Shown here: one piece after another, positions 16,239 through 44,980 of the stretch
Position numbering within the stretch: the stretch's first letter is position 1
Layout: each line of letters begins with the position of its first letter
Source: a virus
Length of the DNA: 64,000 nt
IMG/VR virus record: IMGVR_UViG_3300032286_000925
Coordinates: 31,386 to 95,385 of that record
Reading direction: 5' to 3' (one strand)
The notes under the pieces: model-generated
The model's database searches: none
What the model saw: the letters and a program-made list of their open reading frames with translations, nothing else
Told to the model about the DNA's origin: nothing
Translations under genes and position numbers: made by a program

Positions 16239-16458
16239 TAGATTCTCCTTTAATAAGTTCAACAGCCTCGCAAAAACAATAGCCAAGTTGATTATGCCCA
16301 CCATCCAAAGTGCATTTGCTATTCTCTGCTAGCAGTTTGATGATGCGATTACGTTCTTCTGTTTTAATAAAGCTTTCATATGAAGCTTGCTGTTGACGAA
16401 CAATTCCTCGTCTAATATCAATAGCTTCTTGCTCCGGGTCATGCGGGTAGTCATTCAT
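16231..16458 (-). CDS. ERxRII-motif hypothetical protein
   Basis: EERNRIIKLL; AAGGAG RBS. Confidence 0.6.
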   Translation of the reverse strand: MNDYPHDPEQEAIDIRRGIVRQQQASYESFIKTEERNRIIKLLAENSKCTLDGGHNQLGYCFCEAVELIKGESNE

Positions 16459-16642
16459 TCGTCTCTCCTTTGATAAGGTCAATAGCAGTCTCAAGACCGT
16501 CTAGGTACTCACGGTCAACAAGCATTGGATTGCTTACTCTTTCAATCTCTGCCTTTAGCAGTTCAATAATGCGTTCACGCTCACGCTCAACAGCACGAGC
16601 TCTACCCTTTAGGGAATCCTCTACTGTAATCCATTTACTCAT
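16451..16642 (-). CDS. ERxRII-motif hypothetical protein
   Basis: ERERIIELL. Confidence 0.6.
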   Translation of the reverse strand: MSKWITVEDSLKGRARAVERERERIIELLKAEIERVSNPMLVDREYLDGLETAIDLIKGETNE

Positions 16643-16839
16643 TACGTCATTCTTTCTATTAGTTCGATATGCTCACGAACAGCTCTACAACGAGCATGGG
16701 TCCGCATTATTTTTGCATTTCTGCAGTATTCATAGTCACACGCAAGGTTATTAAGTGCCTCAATGATTCGAGTACGTTCCTCACGTCGACCAACTTCTTC
16801 TCCAGCCATCCAGATGATTCTAGCCTCTTCATCATCCAT
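16642..16839 (-). CDS. ERxRII-motif hypothetical protein
   Basis: EERTRIIEAL; GGAGG RBS. Confidence 0.6.
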   Translation of the reverse strand: MDDEEARIIWMAGEEVGRREERTRIIEALNNLACDYEYCRNAKIMRTHARCRAVREHIELIERMT

Positions 16840-17456: not shown

Positions 17457-17660
17457 TTAATAAACTATGTTCGGTTCTTCGAGCACACCGTGACGTTTTC
17501 TAGCAGCCATACACCCAGCCTCCCAAAGATGTCTAGCGTATTGGCCGTTAACCCCACCACTCCAAAGCTCAATGTTTTTAGTTCCATCTGCATTTCTTGC
17601 AAGGTTTTTCTTAGGAACCTCAAGATTACAGTTTGCACAGATGTAGTTATCAGTAGACAA
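17457..17660 (-). CDS. Small Zn-binding protein ending EEPNIVY
   Basis: CANC...H...C; shared C-terminal motif. Confidence 0.65.
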   Translation of the reverse strand: MSTDNYICANCNLEVPKKNLARNADGTKNIELWSGGVNGQYARHLWEAGCMAARKRHGVLEEPNIVY

Positions 17661-17937
17661 TGTCTGGCTCTTCTCTAGGTGCTAATCCAGATTCTTTAAT
17701 CCAACGCTCAGCAAGGTCTACCTGAACCCCTTGGGTCAAAGTCAGGAAGTCAGTACTACCATCAAGAACGTTGTTATTAAAAAGGTGAATAAGTATTCTA
17801 GCATTTGAATAAGGGTCTCCAGGACCATCCTTCTTACTCTCCCATAGGTTCCTGTCATAGCTAGGAATACTGTAGTAGTTAGTGAGTCTGTACTTAAAGA
17901 CTCCAGAATGCGAGACTTCTACTTCATTAATAGACAA
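17650..17937 (-). CDS. Small protein ending EEPDIVY
   Basis: ORF track; shared C-terminal motif. Confidence 0.65.
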   Translation of the reverse strand: MSINEVEVSHSGVFKYRLTNYYSIPSYDRNLWESKKDGPGDPYSNARILIHLFNNNVLDGSTDFLTLTQGVQVDLAERWIKESGLAPREEPDIVY

Positions 17938-18220
17938 TGTTCCCCTCTTCCTTGTTCAACACTATCAGTTCCGATTGCTTATACCAAGCACTGGATAAAT
18001 ATAACTTTTCGGGCCCAGTAAGGGCATCAAATGCCATCTGATCCATACCAAACAAAGCAGACCTAAACATATGCACTAAGAGTATCTTTTTATCCTCTTC
18101 TAGAGCATTTTGATACCTATCTTGATTAGTAGTGCTAAGGCTAAAGAAGTTAGTGCAATCAAGAGTTTTACCTTTATACTTCATTCTCACTCTAGTAAAC
18201 AACATCTGGCTCCTCACCAT
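17927..18220 (-). CDS. Small protein ending EEGNIVY (true start probably later)
   Basis: ORF track; shared C-terminal motif. Confidence 0.65.
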   Translation of the reverse strand: MVRSQMLFTRVRMKYKGKTLDCTNFFSLSTTNQDRYQNALEEDKKILLVHMFRSALFGMDQMAFDALTGPEKLYLSSAWYKQSELIVLNKEEGNIVY

Positions 18221-18374
18221 CCCAAAGACTCGGTCTTATCCCAGCCTTCTTAACTTCATCCAAAAACGTATTCAAATGCTCTAAGCTACAAAAATCTCCC
18301 CAATGCGTAGTTGGGTACTTAGGCATATTACTGGCAATAGTTTCGCCACATTCGTTGCAAATAGGTTCTTTCAT
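18192..18374 (-). CDS. Treble-clef-like Zn-finger protein ending EEPDVVY
   Basis: CNEC...FCSLEH; leaderless start. Confidence 0.7.
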   Translation of the reverse strand: MKEPICNECGETIASNMPKYPTTHWGDFCSLEHLNTFLDEVKKAGIRPSLWDGEEPDVVY

Positions 18375-18409
18375 ACTCTAACCTTACCGACGTCGACGAC
18401 ATTTGTCAA
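18375..18409 (-). promoter_or_regulatory. Sigma-A type promoter for a leaderless mRNA
   Basis: TTGACA-17-TAAGGT-6-ATG with the same spacer motif as 15218-15252. Confidence 0.8.
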
Positions 18410-18413
18410 CTTC

Positions 18414-18608
18414 TTAATAGACAATATCTTCTTCTTCTGCATTATCAAAAGCTAGCTCACACTGCCCGGAACAGACAGCCACAGTGTCCTCTGGAAAAGT
18501 GTCCCAATCGTACTCAGACAACCACCTAGCACAGAACCCACAGCGAATCCGCTTAATGTCCCAACTAAGGTCTTTGCTAACAAAACTCTTTCTAGTTCTA
18601 CGAAACAT
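18414..18608 (-). CDS. Treble-clef-like Zn-finger protein ending EEEDIVY
   Basis: CGFC...VCSGQC; shared C-terminal motif. Confidence 0.65.
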   Translation of the reverse strand: MFRRTRKSFVSKDLSWDIKRIRCGFCARWLSEYDWDTFPEDTVAVCSGQCELAFDNAEEEDIVY

Positions 18609-18717
18609 TTTTAATCTTTCTTTGAGCTCTTTTAGCCTGTTCGTACAGACGCTTCTTTTGCATCTGGCGATTGAAGCGAATCTCTTTCATGAGTTTTTCA
18701 TATTCTTCATTTGTCAT
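18598..18717 (-). CDS. Small basic protein (39 aa, MTNEEYEKLMKEIRFNRQ...)
   Basis: Manual translation; fills the gap between the tRNA and the next gene. Confidence 0.45.
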   Translation of the reverse strand: MTNEEYEKLMKEIRFNRQMQKKRLYEQAKRAQRKIKNVS

Positions 18718-18740
18718 TTGTCATTCTTTCTTTATGGACG

Positions 18741-18814
18741 TCGAGGATGTCGGACTTGAACCGACGACCGAACGATTATGAGTCGTTTGCTCTAACCTGC
18801 TGAGCTAATCCTCG
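18741..18814 (-). tRNA. tRNA with CAT anticodon (elongator Met or Ile2)
   Basis: CGAGGAT/ATCCTCG acceptor, AACGA-CTCATAA-TCGTT anticodon arm, GGTTCAAGTCC T arm; CCA not encoded. Confidence 0.92.
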
Positions 18815-19152
18815 CTTATAAGCCACTCTATCAGTTCTGGATTATCTCGCATAACCATAATCAACGAGTTCTCCCATACACCAATAAAATAATGCTCCCA
18901 AGCTTCAAAATCATCCGATTTCTTTGGCTTGACAGAGTTATCAAAAATCATCCTAGCTGCGTGGAGGACTTCGTGCATAACAGTCACTTTCTTCTTGCTT
19001 ACATGCATCTGAGAGTCTATCACGATGATATTCTGTGTGTCAATAGTATAACCATAACTACCGTCATTTAACATACCATCTTGCTTTTGGGTACGCTCGA
19101 TGATCTCGAAGACTTGCACTCCGATTTTAACGCTTTTAGGGAACTCAGCCAT
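18805..19152 (-). CDS. Zincin-like HExxH metallopeptidase domain protein
   Basis: VMHEVLHA; GGAGG RBS. Confidence 0.75.
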   Translation of the reverse strand: MAEFPKSVKIGVQVFEIIERTQKQDGMLNDGSYGYTIDTQNIIVIDSQMHVSKKKVTVMHEVLHAARMIFDNSVKPKKSDDFEAWEHYFIGVWENSLIMVMRDNPELIEWLISED

Positions 19153-20278: not shown

Positions 20279-20283
20279 TAGAG

Positions 20284-20356
20284 TGACCCTGTAGGAGTCG
20301 AACCTACGACCTGTGCGATCTAATTGCACCGCTCTTGCCAACTGAGCTAAGGGGCC
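20284..20356 (-). tRNA. Atypical tRNA: apparent UAG (Leu) anticodon on a short-variable-loop body
   Basis: GGCCCCT/AGGGTC-A acceptor, canonical D and T arms, anticodon arm GTGCA-ATTAGAT-CGCAC. Confidence 0.75.
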
Positions 20357-20413
20357 AACCAGATGCGCTCTGGCGGGCGGTCTACATTTTCTTGCGACGG
20401 CGAAACACACCAG

Positions 20414-20625: not shown

Positions 20626-20762
20626 TAATCAGTAAGTCCCGTAGGAAGGCTACTTCGCCCAGTAATCTGGGTATTCCCGGGTGCGGTTTACTGAGTTGCA
20701 ACTACTCCCAAAGACGAAACAGTGGGCGGAGTTATCTACGCCTAGTTGCCATAACGTAGCAG

Positions 20763-21105
20763 TGGAGATGCGGGGAATCGAACCCCGGTCCAGTTAAGGA
20801 TCTATTGTTCTTCTACAAGCTTAGGTAGTTTATGTTACGGCTTAGATGTGTGACCTACCAGACCATCTAGTCGTTACCACTCTTTAAAGTCTTGTGGGAG
20901 AGACTTTTGTTTTGTCCTACTTATTTAAAACCTGACTGCCCACCTAGAACTAGTGCTTTGTCAGGGGCCTAAGCGTTGCGATTAAATCACGCGGCTAGAG
21001 CGTATGCAGATGTATTAGCATTTATTGTTTTGACAGATTCAAGAGATACTGTCATCTCTGCTTGCTTCACCAATTTCAGAATAACTGTCGAAACCAGTCA
21101 TCCCC
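20763..21105 (-). ncRNA. ssrA: tmRNA; tag peptide ANTSAYALAA (21019-20987)
   Basis: 5' GGGGATGACTGGTTTCGAC, 3' GGACCGGGGTTCGATTCCCCGCATCTCCA, G3-U70, ATAAAT-GCT resume context. Confidence 0.97.
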
Positions 21106-22224: not shown

Positions 22225-22551
22225 CTACCGCTTTATTCTAACTTCTATTTGACTAAGGGTAGTTCCCGATTTAATAGCTCTTCTAATGGATTTTCTCTCG
22301 GAGTCCGTGGTCCCACCCCAAATACCCATCTCATTGTTCTCAACAGCATAAACTAGACAGCGCATCATATAAGGACACTCTCTACATACAGCTTTTGCAC
22401 CGGCTTCATTATAATACTTGCTAGTCCCAGCTCCACCAGCAAAATCATTTAAATCCACTGGATAAAATGCATCAGGGTCAACTTCAGCGCAAGGCGCTAC
22501 ACCAAACTCACCAAAATCGGGGTAGTTCTCTATATTTAAATTAAAAATCAT
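22225..22551 (-). CDS. whiB: WhiB family Fe-S transcription factor
   Basis: C..DPDAFYP...AKAVCRECP....C...GIWGG. Confidence 0.92.
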   Translation of the reverse strand: MIFNLNIENYPDFGEFGVAPCAEVDPDAFYPVDLNDFAGGAGTSKYYNEAGAKAVCRECPYMMRCLVYAVENNEMGIWGGTTDSERKSIRRAIKSGTTLSQIEVRIKR

Positions 22552-22573
22552 TTGTCATTCCGTATCTATTTAA

Positions 22574-22771
22574 TTATCCTCTTTTAGCACTAAAACCTAT
22601 ACCATTAAAAATAATAGGTGGAGCACCAAAGATCCTTAGTAGTTTACCACCACAGCCTTCAATTTTGCAAATTGGATCTTCCGGAGTGGGATCATTCATT
22701 AAACGAGTTTCCTCATATTCATGATTTTTATCTTCAGGGTGGTCAGAGCATTTGTATTGGTATGTAGGCAT
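22574..22771 (-). CDS. FmdB-like zinc-ribbon protein
   Basis: MPTYQYKC...C..CGG.L.RIF..P.IIFNG.GF. Confidence 0.8.
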   Translation of the reverse strand: MPTYQYKCSDHPEDKNHEYEETRLMNDPTPEDPICKIEGCGGKLLRIFGAPPIIFNGIGFSAKRG

Positions 22772-22776
22772 TTAAA

Positions 22777-24816
22777 TTACTTATCTTTAAGATTTTCAGT
22801 AATTAGCTTAACCTCACAGGCATCCGTAGTGCAGTAAGCGTCACCAATAGCCTCTAGACCCATACCTTGGTAAATTCCATCAAGAGAGATAGGGAATAGC
22901 TTTTCAGTTGCAGCTAAATACTCTTCCTCAGTGATTTGTGTGTACGGCATCTGAGGATAAGTCATGTTGCCTGAAGGCAAGAATGACACAGTCTTCAGCT
23001 GACCGTCGTACATATGCAGAACTGACTCGATGTGCTTTGACTCAGTCTCAGGGTCAAACGAGATGGTTACAGATACAGAGTTATCTGACCAATAACGCTG
23101 GGCTGTCGCAGCAAGTGCCATCTTTTCAAAGATAGTTACGTCGCGTTCTGCACGTTCCGCAAGAGACTTGATTGGGAAGTAGACAACAGTCGTGTGATCC
23201 GGATTAGATACGTCCGGCTCAACTGTGTAGTTAGCCATCTTGAATAACGCTAACATAGGGTCATCATTTCCAAAACGAATTGCACGGTTGAAGAACTTAC
23301 CTCCTGGGGTCCAGTGAACACCCGGGCTCTCACCGGCCAAGATAGATACAGTTCCTGATGGCTTTACAGTCGTGGTCTTGATTGACTCACGGATACCCAG
23401 CCACTCAGAATAAGTAACGTCATACTTCTTTACTACTGCGTATCCCTCGTCCATCCAAGTACGTAGCTCTGGTAGACCCTTACGGTCAGCAAAGTTAGCA
23501 ATACCAGACATGGAGGTTCCGATACGACGGTTTCTCTGCATGATTGCGTTGGTCTCTTCCCAGTGTGTAGGAAGAAGAGTTACGGTCTTAGCATAAAGGT
23601 AGGCAAACTTTAAAGTACGAAGATAGTCTTCCTTGCTTTCGTGGCGGTTCAGGTAAGTCTCAACAAGAGTACACATTTCGTAGCTCTCCAAAGACTGCTC
23701 TGCACAAGGGTTGTAGCCCATGATTCGGTGGTCCTTGTTGTTGATTGGGTCACCTAGACGACCATATGCCTTCGAGACGTCTTCCCAGATAACGCCAGGT
23801 TCACCGTTAAGAATGATTCCATCCACAATTTTTGAGAAATCAGTTCCAACGTTTACCATGACGGAGTTGTTTGACATCCAACCCCAACCAGGGTTCTCGG
23901 AGTCATAAGAGTTACGCTCAGGGAACTTTTCAGCGTTCTTTAGGTTTAGGAAGTTGTCATCATCAATGCGACCAATCAACAACTCAGCAGAACGACGAAC
24001 GTTACCAGATACAACACAACGGCCAATTAGGTTACCAATGTCAGCAATATCAATAGTAGTTAAAAGCTCACCAGCACGACCATTAAAAATATCACGAATT
24101 TTGTCGTGTAGTGCAATCAATGGGTCTGGACCAGATGCAGTACCACCAAAGGTAGCAATAGGAGTGCCATAAGGACGAATTTCGCTGTAGTCAAACTCTA
24201 GGCTTGCTTGCTCTGGCTTCAGGTATGAGTTGATTAGAGCAACAGTGCTCTCCTGCCAACCTTCACGAGTATCTGGAATAGCGTAGGTCTGAGTAGCACC
24301 CGGAGCATAAATCTCAAAGCTCTTGTCTGCACCCTTGTCGTCAAACCCAACGCCCACACCGAGCATCGATGCTTCCATAAGGAATGCGAATGGCTTACCT
24401 GGGTTCTGCTTGGTCATTTCCAAAGTAGATACAAAAGCACAGTTCTGTAAAGCAGCTGAGTTTTTCTGGACGTTTACGATGTTGGTTCCCATAACCCAAA
24501 GTCCACGCCCTGGAGGAGACCACTTTAGATTAAATAGAGAGTCAAAAAACTCTTTAGCCGAGGCGGCAGCCTTAGCGTCTGACCATGGCAAACGGTTCTG
24601 CTTAGCGTGGTCTTTTTGGATTGAGTATGTACCATTGGTAACACGCTCACAAACTTCAGCCCAAGTTTCCTTGGTGCCATCTTCTTTTTTGCGTGAGTAC
24701 GTGCGCAAGAATGTAATCTCGCCTACAGAGTTGCCAGCGGCATCTTTGTAACCAAAAGGGGATTCTTTTTGCTTGTACTCCGCTACGAACTCTTCATTTA
24801 GCTTAAATGAGAACAT
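22777..24816 (-). CDS. nrdJ: Class II (B12-dependent) monomeric ribonucleoside-triphosphate reductase
   Basis: RTYSR, PPGRGLW, NCAF, GNVRRSA, NPCAE, TVKPSGT, C-terminal CTTDAC. Confidence 0.95.
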   Translation of the reverse strand: MFSFKLNEEFVAEYKQKESPFGYKDAAGNSVGEITFLRTYSRKKEDGTKETWAEVCERVTNGTYSIQKDHAKQNRLPWSDAKAAASAKEFFDSLFNLKWSPPGRGLWVMGTNIVNVQKNSAALQNCAFVSTLEMTKQNPGKPFAFLMEASMLGVGVGFDDKGADKSFEIYAPGATQTYAIPDTREGWQESTVALINSYLKPEQASLEFDYSEIRPYGTPIATFGGTASGPDPLIALHDKIRDIFNGRAGELLTTIDIADIGNLIGRCVVSGNVRRSAELLIGRIDDDNFLNLKNAEKFPERNSYDSENPGWGWMSNNSVMVNVGTDFSKIVDGIILNGEPGVIWEDVSKAYGRLGDPINNKDHRIMGYNPCAEQSLESYEMCTLVETYLNRHESKEDYLRTLKFAYLYAKTVTLLPTHWEETNAIMQRNRRIGTSMSGIANFADRKGLPELRTWMDEGYAVVKKYDVTYSEWLGIRESIKTTTVKPSGTVSILAGESPGVHWTPGGKFFNRAIRFGNDDPMLALFKMANYTVEPDVSNPDHTTVVYFPIKSLAERAERDVTIFEKMALAATAQRYWSDNSVSVTISFDPETESKHIESVLHMYDGQLKTVSFLPSGNMTYPQMPYTQITEEEYLAATEKLFPISLDGIYQGMGLEAIGDAYCTTDACEVKLITENLKDK

Positions 24817-24890
24817 ATTTAGTTATACCTTCTTCTTTGGGGGAGTATTTAATGTTTTACTAGTATACCCCATATAAAGAATTGGGAGTA

Positions 24891-25118
24891 TTAGTCGTGA
24901 TTTAAATATAGTGCATCAACAATAGATTTGCAAATTGGACAGATCCTTAGTTTTAAAGGGTCTCTATAAGGCACAAACTCTATCCCGCATAAGGCTATTA
25001 CTGGAGTTCCCATAACATATCCCTCAGTAACCTTCGCAGCTTCTGCGTAATGTGCAAAATCCTTTGAATCATCGGTATCAGAAGTTATTGGCAAATCTAG
25101 AACATTAACGTTGTTCAT
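24891..25118 (-). CDS. DUF3039 family protein
   Basis: FAHY...GTPVIALCG..FVP.RDP...CPICK. Confidence 0.85.
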   Translation of the reverse strand: MNNVNVLDLPITSDTDDSKDFAHYAEAAKVTEGYVMGTPVIALCGIEFVPYRDPLKLRICPICKSIVDALYLNHD

Positions 25119-26073
25119 TAGGCATATCCTTTAGTATAGACAGAACTTTTTCTTTTGAAATTTTTGCAATATGCGACGAGGCATCTTGCTTTCCAAAACT
25201 TATTATTAACTGACCCCCATGTTCAACCATTCCGGCAGCAAACTCTACTCCCGGAGAAATAAATTGAAAAGGCTCCGTGTATTGAATAATTTCACCATAC
25301 CAGTTATACCTGACAAAACAATGAGAGTAGTTTCTAATAACTCCTTGAAGCACCCCAAAAGACTCCGGTTGATACCAGCTATACGGAGCCATGTAGTTTC
25401 TGTGAACTACAGCCAAGTATGTACTATCTCCCAAATCAAGTAGGCAAGAACCGCCTCTAAACTTGTACTCAGGAGTTTTCTGGTCTACAACAATGATGTC
25501 ATCCTTAGTTGCGACCCCACACTCATATATAAAATCAAAGTTTGGGTTTTCTTTATAAGGTAGCATCCAATTTTTTTCAACAGCTTTTTCACCTTTAGGA
25601 GATCTATATATATGGATAAATTTAGCTTCTTTTTTATCTTTATTATATTTAAACAGCCCTACTCTTGGATAACTCATGTAGCCAACCTCATAGACTACAC
25701 CTAGCATCCACCAAGAGTTATCCCGCCAAAACAATCTAAAGTCTTCTATCCCTCTTTTTATTGGAAAAGGACAATTCACTATAGATATTTCTGAAAAATT
25801 TTTAAACGTTCTTAAATCAGCATCTAATTCTGCAAAATAAACCCTATTTTTAACAAGATTGCCAGTAGTAATTTTTAGATGGTATTGAGGAAAATCTAAA
25901 ATTAAGTTGCTAGATCTAAAAACAACAGCGTACAATCCACTATCATCAACCCCAATAGATGGATTACATAGGGACCAAAGGGGGTCTTTTAGTTGATTTT
26001 TATCAGCTAAAAGGTAAGTTTCTCCCCCTAAATCTTTAAATAAAGGGTGCGGAGGGAAGGTGACATCAGACAT
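25105..26073 (-). CDS. Five-bladed beta-propeller glycosidase-like protein
   Basis: NPSI, GIEDFRLF, EKNW, RGGS, VEFAAG, SFGKQD. Confidence 0.7.
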   Translation of the reverse strand: MSDVTFPPHPLFKDLGGETYLLADKNQLKDPLWSLCNPSIGVDDSGLYAVVFRSSNLILDFPQYHLKITTGNLVKNRVYFAELDADLRTFKNFSEISIVNCPFPIKRGIEDFRLFWRDNSWWMLGVVYEVGYMSYPRVGLFKYNKDKKEAKFIHIYRSPKGEKAVEKNWMLPYKENPNFDFIYECGVATKDDIIVVDQKTPEYKFRGGSCLLDLGDSTYLAVVHRNYMAPYSWYQPESFGVLQGVIRNYSHCFVRYNWYGEIIQYTEPFQFISPGVEFAAGMVEHGGQLIISFGKQDASSHIAKISKEKVLSILKDMPNEQR

Positions 26074-34850: not shown

Positions 34851-35488
34851 CACTTTTATATGCCAGAGTATCTACCCAACTCCAGGTAAACGATGGTGTG
34901 TCACTAGATGTCCAAGAACGCCAACTTCAAAACGCGGCTGAACTAGCTGGATACACCGAGTTTGAGTTAGTAAGAGAGGAAGGACGCTCAGGTAAGTCAA
35001 TTTCAGGCCGTCCGGCCCTTACAGAGGCTTTGAAGAGATTAGACAGTGGAGAAGCAGAAGCTCTTTTTGTGACGCGTATTGACCGCCTAGCCCGCTCTAC
35101 GAAGGATTTTTTGAGCATTATAGACCGAGCAAATGCTAATAAATGGCGTTTAGTTATGCTTGATTTAAACCTAGATACAGCCAGCTATCAGGGTCGTTTC
35201 GTGGTCACCATCATGTCTGCCTTGGCTGAGATGGAACGTGGGATCATTGCAGAACGTCAAAAAGACGTTCATAAAGATAGAAGAGCCCGAGGAATTGTCT
35301 GGGGAGTAGATATGGGACCCAAGAACAAAACCCCCGAAGAAATCAAACAAAGAATTTTGTCTGAAAGAGCTTCAGGGGCTTCATACAAAAAAATTGCAGA
35401 TGGACTTAATCGAGATTCTGTTCCGACTCAGAATGGTCGTCAGTGGTATCCCACAACAGTAAAGAATCTCGTTGACTCAATTGAGTAG
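34826..35488 (+). CDS. Small serine recombinase (resolvase/invertase)
   Basis: YARVST..Q, SG..RPAL, RIDRLARS, LAEMER..I.ER; C-terminal HTH. Confidence 0.93.
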   Translation: MGMAESGLALLYARVSTQLQVNDGVSLDVQERQLQNAAELAGYTEFELVREEGRSGKSISGRPALTEALKRLDSGEAEALFVTRIDRLARSTKDFLSIIDRANANKWRLVMLDLNLDTASYQGRFVVTIMSALAEMERGIIAERQKDVHKDRRARGIVWGVDMGPKNKTPEEIKQRILSERASGASYKKIADGLNRDSVPTQNGRQWYPTTVKNLVDSIE

Positions 35489-36236
35489 GTTGATCCCCCT
35501 TTAGCTGCTCATTTCTTAGGACAATGTCATGAAAAAAGCTACCAGAGAATCCGTAGTCTCCAGCATGAATAATATTCACCCATGGAGCTGCCCAGACTTC
35601 TCCTCCAAGTTCACGCCACTTTTCACAAAAATAATAGTCTTCCGACAACAAAATATTGTCATCAGTCACTTCTGTTTTAAAATACTCGGTTACAAGATCA
35701 TTCATGTCAAAAGACCCATCACTTTGATTTAGAGCGTATGATTTACAAGTAGGTTTCATATCCTCAAAGACTTTACGAGTAATAAACATCATTCCAGTAC
35801 CAATCTGAGTCACCTGAAACGGCTCATTAAAGTTAATTTCTGTCTTCTCGGACAAAACATTTACAGCAAAAAATCCAGAATAGTCAGATAGATTTTCTTT
35901 TCCAGCTAACACGGCTTGACGAACCTGATCCCAGTTAATGTTCTTCATAGGGTAAATACCACCAATAAGATCTTTACCAGCATTTACCATCCTTGTAACG
36001 TCCTCATGGTTGAAACCCTCATCCGCATCTATAAATAACAAAGCATCAGCATCACTTTTGATAAACTCGTGAACAAGATTATTACGAGCTCTAGTGATTA
36101 GACTTTCATTGTAGACCTTTGACATCGAAACTTCGTGACCATTACGGATAAGTTCAAAGACTAAATTAAAAAGACTGTCTAGGTAGATACCTTTACAGTT
36201 TCCCCCATACATAGGGGTAGCGATACGTACATGCAT
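35406..36236 (-). CDS. Glycosyltransferase (GT-A fold)
   Basis: IATPMYGG, NESLITRARN, FIDAD, GTGMM, SEDYYFC. Confidence 0.85.
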   Translation of the reverse strand: MHVRIATPMYGGNCKGIYLDSLFNLVFELIRNGHEVSMSKVYNESLITRARNNLVHEFIKSDADALLFIDADEGFNHEDVTRMVNAGKDLIGGIYPMKNINWDQVRQAVLAGKENLSDYSGFFAVNVLSEKTEINFNEPFQVTQIGTGMMFITRKVFEDMKPTCKSYALNQSDGSFDMNDLVTEYFKTEVTDDNILLSEDYYFCEKWRELGGEVWAAPWVNIIHAGDYGFSGSFFHDIVLRNEQLKGDQPTQLSQRDSLLLWDTTDDHSESEQNLD

Positions 36237-43644: not shown

Positions 43645-44181
43645 CTAGAACGGTGCGTCTGCAGGGGCAGACAGTGGCACTCCAGGGCCGCTAGGGGCCG
43701 GAGGAGGAGGTGGCACAGCAGCACCCGCAGTTGTAGCCTGAGGGGCTACAGCAGGCGCTGAAGGGCTTACAGACCCAACGTAGTAACGGCCAATCTTGTT
43801 CTTTTTAGCACCCTGATACACTTCTGAAGAGATCTGAGCGCGGAAAGATTTACCAGCCAAAGCTGCTTCAATCTGGGCGTTTGATGGGTTGTTATTCGTG
43901 AAGAACTCACGAGGGATACCTAGGGCAGCCATCTTAGAGAAAAAGATACCAAGGGCATTCTTGTTCTCAGGTGAGATGGTAATGTTGTCCCAGATAAAGC
44001 GATTAGCGTAAGGTCCAGTAACTACCTTTGCCTTTAGCTTGAACATGGTCTTACCAGTGCTGGTAGTACCTGCTGGAGCCTCTACCACCTGAAGATCGTA
44101 ATCTCCATCTGGTAGTGGCTCGTAGTTGCCGGTGGCCTCGCCGGCGTCTTTTACAAGATCGGCCCAATTCAGTGAACTCAC
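43645..44181 (-). CDS. Single-stranded DNA-binding protein (DUF669-like)
   Basis: YEPLPDGDY, TSTGKTM, Pro-rich linker, terminal DAPF. Confidence 0.8.
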   Translation of the reverse strand: MSSLNWADLVKDAGEATGNYEPLPDGDYDLQVVEAPAGTTSTGKTMFKLKAKVVTGPYANRFIWDNITISPENKNALGIFFSKMAALGIPREFFTNNNPSNAQIEAALAGKSFRAQISSEVYQGAKKNKIGRYYVGSVSPSAPAVAPQATTAGAAVPPPPPAPSGPGVPLSAPADAPF

Positions 44182-44221
44182 TGTATTATTTCCTTAACTG
44201 TTAGGGGTGGGTTGAGAAGTC

Positions 44222-44980
44222 CTAAGACTTCTTCTTCTCGGTTTTTACACCGAAAATCATGTCGAGCATACGCTCAATTCCAAGGTCACCTTGTTCGACA
44301 ATTTTGCCGAGACGACCCTGAACACGTTCTCCAGCTTCAACCTGATCTGTACGTTCCACATACATACGACGCGCCTTGTAGGGCAACTGGGTTGGGTCTG
44401 GATTTGGGATGGTCTCATTAGCAATGTAACCAAGAACATCATAAAAGTATGGTGCTTGGATTGCAAGTTGACCCTGTAGGTAAGGATGCATAATATTATC
44501 CTGACCCCTACGAGCCATAGCTGTGAGAACAACAGCCTCAATAGGCTGAGTTGGGTGCATTGTAAGGTCACGCAAGTCGCGAAGTAGAGCACCCATGTGG
44601 CGAAGTAGTTCGCCCCACTGTTGCATCTTCATCTGCTCGGTGCCAGCAATGTTGTCCATACACTTAACCTGCAACTCGGAAATCGAGTCAATGATTAAGG
44701 ATTTGAACTGGTGCTTACCGCTTTGAAGCCATTGGAATGCCTTCATAACGACGTCGTAGTCACGAACCTGAACTACAACTGTGTCCCAAGTGCCGTCGGC
44801 CACTGGTGGCTCCTCGCGCATTGGATCCCAATACTTCACATTGATTGGGAGGAATCTATGTCCGCCCTCAACGTCAAGCATTAGGCGTGGATATGGTGCA
44901 GTGACCGCAAAGGTGGACTTTCCAACTTTTGATTCACCGTAGACCATGATAGTCAAAGAACGTTGTACGTCTGACATCAC
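44222..44980 (-). CDS. Sak4-like AAA ssDNA-annealing ATPase
   Basis: YGESKVGKST, LDVEGG, IIDSISELQ. Confidence 0.85.
   Translation of the reverse strand: MMSDVQRSLTIMVYGESKVGKSTFAVTAPYPRLMLDVEGGHRFLPINVKYWDPMREEPPVADGTWDTVVVQVRDYDVVMKAFQWLQSGKHQFKSLIIDSISELQVKCMDNIAGTEQMKMQQWGELLRHMGALLRDLRDLTMHPTQPIEAVVLTAMARRGQDNIMHPYLQGQLAIQAPYFYDVLGYIANETIPNPDPTQLPYKARRMYVERTDQVEAGERVQGRLGKIVEQGDLGIERMLDMIFGVKTEKKKS

Follow-up and report, generated by a model that had tools for sequence, protein, structure and literature searches.

A C-terminal tail shared by small proteins of a putative actinophage clade resembles the tip of single-stranded DNA-binding proteins and, within arrays, overlaps the start signal of the next gene

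The window analyzed here, a stretch of 64,000 nucleotides of phage DNA, comprises bases 31386-95385 of a 95,385-bp virus record in IMG/VR (IMGVR_UViG_3300032286_000925), which is estimated to be 71% complete and has a G+C content of 42%. On its minus strand, from position 18608 down to 17457, lie five adjacent open reading frames (ORFs), referred to as genes E, D, C, B and A in their order of reading, which all close in the peptide EE.[DN][IV]VY directly before the stop codon, as seen both in the ORF listing and by direct reading (Table 1). All three types of stop codon are used among them. An initial annotation of this DNA had pointed out the shared C-terminal tail and stated that no other ORF of the window ends in this way; both observations hold, as a six-frame scan of the window found the ending nowhere beyond the five ORFs. 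Likewise, a degenerate pattern for the tail DNA matched five times in the 95,385-bp record and not once in a reversed control, and from the amino-acid composition of the phage, such an ending is expected by chance about 1.3e-7 times per protein and 2e-5 times per genome.

The initial annotation had allowed for the possibility that these ORFs are untranslated. Their substitution pattern indicates that A-D are real genes evolving as coding sequence, because the ratio of non-synonymous to synonymous substitution rates (dN/dS) against L006, a contig of a close relative, lies between 0.10 and 0.32, with the value of 0.10 found for gene D. Gene C was listed as an ORF at 17927-18220, but its ATG at 18220 is not conserved, whereas a TTG at 18202 is. 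Many homologues of B in public gene calls begin with a literal leucine, which means that independent gene callers place their start at a TTG as well. The five proteins had also been described as mutually unrelated, which is correct for A, D and E: without their tails, they have nothing in common except a CxxC knuckle, and between D and E the tail is the only part that aligns. B and C, on the other hand, turned out to be remote paralogues (hhalign probability 95%, E 3e-8), so that the array comprises four independent families, not five. Searches of Pfam and PHROGs assigned no family to any of the proteins A-E, and a nucleotide search of a phage collection returned a tRNA as the sole match.

Within these families, the tail is conserved far beyond its surroundings, and homologues that lack it, one of the findings that by the initial annotation would speak against the tag, were not found for either A or B. 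In the A family, all 13 aligned sequences close in EEP[ND][ILV]VY, down to 50% identity and with insertions and deletions just before the tail; in the B family, 36 of 36 homologue cluster representatives close in EEP[DNE][IV]VY, down to about 30% identity, and in the family of gene E, the tail is invariant at 52-56% identity. Only 10 of the 95 columns in the B alignment are invariant, and five of these fall within the last seven residues (Fisher p 8e-5). The motif is also fixed in its position: in all ORFs of seven contigs, EE.[DN][IV]VY occurs 28 times, of which 27 are exactly C-terminal and one is eight residues short of the end. An AlphaFold2 model of B, with a mean predicted local distance difference test (pLDDT) score of 83.6, shows a small alpha/beta domain at residues 1-85, for which a Foldseek search of the PDB gave no fold match, followed by an unstructured stretch at residues 86-95, with a pLDDT below 50 at positions 90-94. 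Strong conservation combined with predicted disorder and a constant place at the terminus is the signature of a short linear docking motif, here with the consensus EE[PEG][DN][IVL]VY.

The motif extends beyond the window. In the same record, directly downstream of genes for a MoxR-type AAA+ protein and an HExxH-vWA protein, there is a second cluster of motif-bearing genes, which is syntenic in all seven related phage records (Table 1). An IMG/VR scan for the tail DNA yielded six more contigs, in addition to a close relative already found via B, and the array is also present in both of the metagenome contigs that were found via A. Arrays in the further IMG/VR contigs contain up to eight tailed genes. 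Contig G004, for instance, has eight in succession, in a slot marked by the same conserved leader gene of 39-46 amino acids, and none of them is BLAST-similar to A-E, with one B-like member seen only by profile alignment. The 39-aa leader gene of the window marks the slot of the array, as judged from its conservation in phages whose arrays differ entirely from ours. Across the phage clade, about 20 motif-bearing families can be distinguished with BLASTP (E below 1e-5, coverage at least 50%). By contrast, no tail array was found in 185,579 species genomes scanned for the tail DNA, where 26 single matches and no clusters appeared, nearly all of them attributable to chance (TGG in place of the stop codon, or ORFs under 60 aa).

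The view of the tail as a portable module, already expressed in the initial annotation, is borne out by the DUF1281-type protein of the second cluster. An exhaustive search returned 7,149 homologues, and among the 150 best representatives only four carry the tail at their end; most of those without it end shortly after a conserved DDCP-type motif, the point past which the copy in the window genome runs on with NDQ-PEPDVVY. In addition, the same slot is occupied by unrelated tailed genes in different phages. By this comparison, the tail is portable and has been added, as a module, to proteins that are not related. The family of the two CxxC paralogues in the second cluster shows how far the tail itself may vary, as its members end in EEKEIVY, EEEDEVY, EAKEVIY, EEEDLLND, EEQDLLDQ, EEKDLLTT, EESDLLA or EESDVVY plus eight residues. 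The constant part is therefore EE-x-[DE]-hydrophobic-hydrophobic, with a tyrosine and a free carboxylate that are often present but dispensable. This bears on the earlier proposal that selection acts on the peptide and its free C-terminus. The alignments support selection on the peptide and, for the tyrosine form, also on its position at the free C-terminus, given the 27 terminal cases out of 28 and the seven different codons seen at position -3 where no start codon overlaps; as a general rule, the free C-terminus does not stand, since one family ends in EEKEIVY in one phage and in EEEDLLND in another.

Inside the arrays, the DNA of the tail encodes more than the peptide. In the 24 nucleotides of each of the junctions B/A, C/B and D/C, the last codons of one gene hold the TTG start codon of the next in another frame, preceded by a Shine-Dalgarno-like stretch (Table 1). 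We analyzed 38 distinct tyrosine-ended tails from nine contigs, 21 of which contain the TTG start of the next gene, whereas 17 have no overlapping start. In the overlapping tails, the codon at -3 is only ATT or GTT and the codon at -2 only GTC or GTT, and the base following the -3 codon completes the TTG that opens the next ORF; their Glu-Glu codons are mostly GAG (27 GAG to 13 GAA), forming a GAGGAG-like Shine-Dalgarno stretch 7 nucleotides upstream of the TTG. Since this start is set in the codons of the tail, the proteins downstream of overlapping tails all begin with M-[SF]-[TI]. In the 17 non-overlapping tails, by contrast, GTG, CTA, TTG, ATC, ATA, CTG and CTT are found at -3 and five different codons at -2, and the Glu-Glu codons are 26 GAA to 3 GAG. 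These tails belong to the last genes of arrays, to genes before ATG starts or promoter-like gaps and to the DUF1281 family, and their peptide is unchanged. The tail of gene A, the last gene of its array, overlaps no start codon, and its DNA reads ATAGTTTAT in the window phage, CTAGTATAC in L006 and TTGGTGTAC in L011, with different genes downstream. The codon usage thus points to two superimposed but separable constraints within the arrays, the peptide and the start signal of the next gene. The initial annotation had named overlap with downstream ribosome-binding sites (RBS) and TTG starts as a possible cause of the conservation; such an overlap is present in 21 of the 38 tails and accounts for the choice of codons inside the arrays, but it does not explain the conservation of the peptide, which is kept with varied codons in the 17 tails that have no start to preserve.

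The junctions, with the consensus GARGARCCNGAYATTGTCTAYTRA, also appear to delimit interchangeable units. In close relatives, the slot between B and A holds an extra cassette, which is a different gene in L006 (cassette X) and in L009 (cassette Y), and each of them is flanked by a repeated TTGTCTACT junction, suggesting cassette exchange at this repeat. Between E and D, there is a gap instead, which looks like a promoter for a leaderless mRNA. A consensus scan did not list its TTGACA-17-TAAGGT element. TTGACA boxes of a similar kind are seen 3' of the stop codons of other tailed genes in G002 and G004.

Table 1. Genes, junctions and neighboring features. Coordinates refer to the window unless another contig is named; aa, amino acids; nt, nucleotides.
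Feature	Coordinates	Strand	Description
Gene E	18414..18608	-	64 aa; zinc-ribbon-like (CxxC...CxxxC); opens the array of tail genes; ends EEEDIVY-TAA
Gene D	18192..18374	-	60 aa; CxxC...CxxxH, zinc-ribbon-like; ends EEPDVVY-TAG; last codons hold the TTG (18202) starting C
Gene C	17927..18202	-	91 aa from the conserved TTG at 18202; ends EEGNIVY-TAA
Gene B	17650..17937	-	95 aa; TTG start within the tail of C; ends EEPDIVY-TGA
Gene A	17457..17660	-	67 aa; zinc-ribbon-like; TTG start within the tail of B; ends EEPNIVY-TAA; last of the array
B/A junction	17650..17673	-	24 nt: EEPDIVY-stop of B; one frame over, TTG-TCT-ACT start of A; GAAGAG 7 nt upstream, Shine-Dalgarno-like
C/B junction	17927..17950	-	same dual-coding layout, GAAGAGGGGAACATTGTCTATTAA
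D/C junction	18192..18215	-	same dual-coding layout, GAGGAGCCAGATGTTGTTTACTAG
E/D gap	18375-18413	-	39 nt: TTGACA, 17 nt, TAAGGT, about 7 nt, then ATG of D
39-aa gene ahead of the array	18598..18717	-	sole locus member conserved in G000, G001, G004 and G006, whose arrays carry entirely different tail genes
Second SSB-like protein	43645..44181	-	178 aa; adjoins the Sak4 annealase gene; ends ADAPF, canonical SSB-tip type
Sak4-like annealase and second SSB-like protein	43645-44980	-	
MoxR/vWA-downstream cluster	L012 10342-13281 (G000 22342-25281)		motif-bearing genes, outside the window
DUF1281-type protein			same cluster; 209 aa; ends PEPDVVY; sixth tyrosine-ended tail gene of the record
Two paralogous CxxC proteins			same cluster; end EEEDLLND and EEQDLLDQ
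130-aa protein			same cluster; ends PEQDVVYGGEA
88-aa protein			same cluster; ends QEPDLLYGNEA
SSB1			same cluster, after a helix-turn-helix gene and a 72-aa ORF; 140 aa; PF00436; ends PTEEPTIV
Cassette X	L006 4284-4430		48 aa; ends QERVIVY
Cassette Y	L009 2994-3335		about 100 aa; ends QEPDIVY
Small genes downstream of a C5 methyltransferase	16451-16839	-	also with conserved ends (..IDLIKGETNE, ..IELIERMT), recurring in L006
tRNA-Met	18740-18814	-	near the array
M78-like peptidase ORF	18805-19152		10 nt of overlap with the tRNA-Met gene
tRNA-Leu	20283-20357	-	near the array
Transfer-messenger RNA (tmRNA)	20762-21105	-	near the array; tag ANTSAYALAA; Rfam 134.5 bits
phrog_1574 paralogues	2241-2906 and 35406-36236	-	DxD-like motifs; in tail-bearing phages, absent from DSL-LC01
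phrog_2355 protein	L012 8229-8600	-	123 aa; with its orthologues, ends G[DEK]-hydrophobic-hydrophobic-Y-G in all phages where found

A clue to the purpose of the tail comes from the second cluster, which also encodes a single-stranded DNA-binding (SSB) protein, SSB1 (PF00436 match, E 1.5e-15). In all seven phage records, SSB1 consists of an OB domain and, behind a linker whose length differs, an E-P-x-[IV]-V end that does not vary, which takes the forms EEPTIV, EEPAIV, EEPEVV or EPEPEIV and corresponds to the core of the tail without its tyrosine. Only SSB1 of the phage, an OB-fold protein, carries this tyrosine-less core; B has a different fold. We examined the best 120 database relatives of SSB1: those on phage-size contigs end in EPEPE[IMLV]V or EEP[ATV]IV, and those on contigs of 212-328 kb in EPELV or ERELV, followed by GAGKRR, AAK or GSKS. 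These latter contigs exceed the phage in size, and some are named by their source as Actinomycetota metagenome-assembled genomes or freshwater metagenome, so that their SSB1 relatives are probably host homologues. With SSB1 as tblastn query, no deposited phage was found at E 1e-15 or better. Most of the 32 actinobacterial SSBs that we sampled end in DEEPPF, DDDIPF or DDVPF, but three end in EDEVVY or EDEVVF (L093, L100 and L104 in the Actinomycetota genomes G039, G069 and G084), a variant of the usual PPF or IPF tip that is not known to have been described, by which an acidic-Val-Val-Tyr carboxy-terminus falls among the natural SSB tips. Three unpublished genomes, G009, G026 and G056, were part of one sample, and nothing claimed here depends on them. 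The likeness to SSB and T7 gp2.5 tails drawn in the initial annotation was therefore apt, as this same core closes the SsbB-like SSB that the phage itself encodes. [quoted passage not shown] The window phage also has a Sak4-like annealase, next to a second SSB-like protein with a tip of the canonical type (Table 1). Since the latter ends in ADAPF, the phage appears to use two distinct tip codes, the EEPDIVY type being separate from the canonical one.

Further evidence comes from Actinomycetia phage DSL-LC01 (OQ999401, Dishui Lake, 129 kb), the nearest named phage. It shares with the window phage the family A polymerase (77% identity), an SNF2-like helicase (77%), an exonuclease (72%), Sak4 (80%), the second SSB (59%), a PrimPol-helicase (58%), MoxR (66%) and vWA (45%), but it has no SSB1, no tail-bearing family and no ORF with the tail. 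As both are missing there, tails and SSB1 come and go together in the genomes compared, while the replisome and the MoxR-vWA pair are retained in their absence. The chances that a replisome protein shared by both phages is a dedicated receptor of the tail are thereby lowered; a receptor on the host, or a phage protein specific to the clade, is possible. Two groups of phage proteins deserve mention here. The phrog_1574 paralogues were considered as a clamp-type hub and rejected, because their sequence looks like that of a glycosyltransferase instead. The phrog_2355 protein has a conserved end of its own, in which the tyrosine is penultimate, reminiscent of the HbYX motif; this terminal motif differs from the EEPDIVY-type tail.

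The phage, a siphovirus, encodes a tape-measure protein and a class II ribonucleotide reductase as well as tRNAs and a tmRNA, in addition to the family A polymerase, Sak4 and two SSBs. It also carries two WhiB genes, and its relatives come from freshwater or estuarine metagenomes. Compared with 151 Actinomycetota genomes, the phage tmRNA gave a match of 32 nucleotides only, and SSB1 is about equally distant, at 27-37% identity, from all sampled actinobacterial SSBs. In 401 sampled genomes, the nearest SsbB-like genes are 47-53% identical to the presumed host paralogue P0178, which served as the query, and do not bear the motif.

The sequences and the model thus show the motif itself, selection on the peptide, its place at the C-terminus, its predicted disorder, its modular gain, the dual coding and the joint occurrence with SSB1. 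We infer that the tail binds a protein, and which one, and we give about even chances to the reading that it is an SSB-tip-like docking motif for one common receptor. According to this reading, a core of E-[EP]-x-[DNE]-hydrophobic-hydrophobic, usually with a C-terminal tyrosine, has been appended on a disordered end to about 20 mostly unrelated early proteins in one clade of freshwater, presumably actinobacterial, siphophages. In type, it matches the tip of the SsbB-like SSB of the clade and lies within the range of natural SSB tips (DDDIPF, and EDEVVY/F in some Actinomycetota). All bearers would plug into a single pocket, which also takes the tip of SSB1, on a genome-maintenance protein of the host or the phage, and their binding would either recruit variable domains (four zinc-ribbon-like families, the DUF1281 domain and a novel alpha/beta fold) or compete with SSB. 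In the arrays, the 24 nucleotides have a second job, in that the GAG-rich Glu-Glu codons serve as a Shine-Dalgarno-like sequence and the NTT-G of the Ile/Val-Val codons as the next TTG start, which would couple the translation of adjacent cassettes. As the junction of about 20 nucleotides is repeated at each boundary, it could act as a short site for cassette swapping, and an ORF placed between two of these junctions would take on the tag. More tentatively, and with rather less confidence, we consider a viral tag-and-hub system, in which the tag copies an actinobacterial SsbB-type tip, spreads via its own RBS/TTG junction and delivers dozens of interchangeable accessory proteins (zinc ribbons, DUF1281 and novel folds) to one SSB-binding pocket in the DNA-maintenance machinery of the host or the phage, thereby hijacking or saturating the SSB interactome.

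Several points weigh against the docking reading. When the tip of SSB1 (..EIV) and the tail (..IVY) are lined up at the carboxylate, their registers differ by one residue, so that a single pocket might not accept both. The second SSB, with its ADAPF tip beside Sak4, may be the replisome SSB, which leaves the role of SSB1 doubtful. The five window proteins themselves show no OB fold, no SSB match and no recognized DNA-metabolism domain in Pfam or PHROGs, and some homologues carry EE.DLL plus one to seven more residues and no tyrosine, which means that a terminal carboxylate is not universally required. Our search for the receptor yielded none, as no recognizable peptide-binding domain is present in the genes that the tail-bearing phages share and DSL-LC01 lacks. 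Finally, the assignment to actinobacterial hosts, suggested by the two WhiB genes, draws on these genes and on the names of the sources.

Other explanations have to be weighed against the same data. For a degron, which would deliver early proteins by their C-terminus to a protease of the host or the phage for timed clearance, as well as for MoxR-vWA binding, packaging, nascent-peptide action, modification and a clamp tail, the positive support consists of general logic. Among the hubs suggested in the initial annotation, a protease, the proteasome and RNA polymerase find no support in these data, and neither does capsid loading. A degron would fit a tag that is terminal, exposed and portable and sits on many unrelated early proteins, much like ssrA-type tags, and the phage has its own tmRNA. 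We nevertheless regard it as unlikely, as the tail is acidic and ends in tyrosine, whereas the tag of the phage tmRNA has a non-polar ALAA end; an SSB, which is needed in quantity, bears the same core; and co-occurrence with the tails was seen for no protease or adaptor gene.

Alternatively, the tail might mark clients or adaptors of the phage's MoxR AAA+/vWA pair, the metal site of vWA being bound by the carboxylate or by an acidic residue. The genome of the window phage and all six relatives indeed have five or more motif-bearing genes directly downstream of MoxR and HExxH-vWA. This idea is weakened by DSL-LC01, which retains the pair without any tails and with downstream genes that share no ending, and the array of the window lies about 23.5 kb away from the pair; we consider it improbable.

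The third alternative, that the tail is a by-product of a nucleic-acid feature, such as a start-associated junction with a Shine-Dalgarno sequence and a TTG for translational coupling or a site for cassette recombination, draws on the restricted codons of the 21 overlapping tails, on the repeated junctions that flank cassettes X and Y, and on the conservation of start-associated sequences in Cluster K mycobacteriophages (PMC3203893). As the sole explanation, it is refuted by the sequence comparisons and has little probability left: the 17 tails without an overlapping start keep the peptide with varied synonymous codons and GAA-rich Glu-Glu pairs, the tail of gene A is retained in 13 homologues despite different downstream genes, that of the DUF1281 family is conserved without any junction, and the motif is terminal in 27 of 28 cases.

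The remaining alternatives fare worse. A common tag on small accessory proteins could in principle direct the proteins into the capsid and from there, by ejection, into the host, but the genes lie in early, non-structural regions beside methyltransferases, SSB and regulators, the core is carried by an SSB and no structural gene co-varies with the tails, so that we see very little chance for it. Action as a nascent peptide at the stop codon, which would tune termination and re-initiation on the coupled next gene, would agree with the immediate next start of most tailed genes (TTG overlap, TAATG or gaps of a few bases), but some are followed by a promoter-like gap (E and the EEKEIVY genes of G004), the distance from the motif to the stop codon varies from 0 to 8 residues among homologues and the chemistry of the motif is that of protein docking tips; its chances seem minimal. 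The notion that the terminal Val-Tyr is the substrate of a modifying enzyme, as in mycofactocin precursors, takes its lead from a resemblance to the Val-Tyr end of MftA and is negligible, given that no radical-SAM gene was found in four phage records (PF04055; the control was positive in 14 of 14 genomes) and that the bearers are folded proteins of 60-250 aa, not short precursors.

Acidic, aromatic-ended C-terminal docking tips are already known, as are start-associated sequences. Among the former, the SSB tip (SSB-Ct; DDDIPF) is the closest parallel to the proposed docking motif: in it, too, an acidic run leads over hydrophobic residues to an aromatic residue at the terminus, all of this on a disordered end and with much stronger conservation than elsewhere in the tail, and it has its counterparts in the phage's own SSB and in the actinobacterial SSBs that end in EDEVVY or EDEVVF. 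As in such a tip, the very end of the protein is reached through a linker that is flexible and little conserved, as seen in the terminal position of the tail, in the insertions and deletions that precede it in A and SSB1 and in the low pLDDT in B. However, SSB-Ct is one ligand on one protein with many receptors, whereas the putative ligand described here is found on about 20 non-SSB proteins, and its consensus has a proline at -5 and a tyrosine in place of phenylalanine. In phage T7, gp2.5 and gp4 have acidic tails ending in phenylalanine, which share a common site on the T7 DNA polymerase. Like the SSB and Sak4 of HK620 (PMC5928155), they are examples of unrelated phage proteins in which an acidic, aromatic-ended C-terminus reaches one phage partner. 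These cases involve two or three replisome proteins, as opposed to dozens of small accessory proteins in hypervariable arrays, and the SSB next to Sak4 in the window phage has a different tip, ADAPF. In phage T4, the C-terminal tails of gp43, gp33 and gp55 bind the sliding clamp. They provide a precedent for one short C-terminal peptide that brings functionally unrelated phage proteins to one hub, but the tail motif differs from the clamp-binding consensus, and the clamp families PF00712 and PF02916 had no match in four phage records (37-71% complete; PF02916 was searched without a positive control). The HbYX motif of proteasome activators, a hydrophobic-Tyr C-terminal docking motif that also occurs in Actinobacteria, requires one residue after the tyrosine; it was excluded, as the tyrosine is the last residue and not the penultimate one in 27 of 28 cases.

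With regard to the DNA, the closest parallel is the start-associated sequence of Cluster K mycobacteriophages, a 13-bp element, GGGATAGGAGCCC, found mostly before ATG starts (PMC3203893). It, too, is short and conserved, has a Shine-Dalgarno core and directly precedes the start codons of many non-structural genes that belong to different families, again in an actinophage. Yet no conserved peptide was reported for it, whereas the element of the window is read as a protein tail and persists without a following start, and the junction consensus does not match the 13-bp consensus. In the literature, we found no description of one such tip across about 20 non-SSB families of a phage, nor of such a tip concentrated in hypervariable cassette arrays or fused with the start signal of the next gene.

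Short C-terminal docking peptides like the SSB tip organize bacterial DNA metabolism, where they are known as one ligand on one protein. The phage lineage described here has one such putative ligand on about 20 proteins, many of them encoded in hypervariable arrays of early genes; arrays of this kind are the usual place of genes for host takeover and counter-defense. Once found, the receptor would tie an entire group of orphan phage genes to one shared point of action, and it would also yield a peptide handle for pull-downs in uncultured freshwater Actinomycetota. Furthermore, the dual-coding junction illustrates clearly how one piece of DNA can be both a functional tag and the boundary of a cassette, and it offers a mechanism by which new genes may gain the tag automatically.

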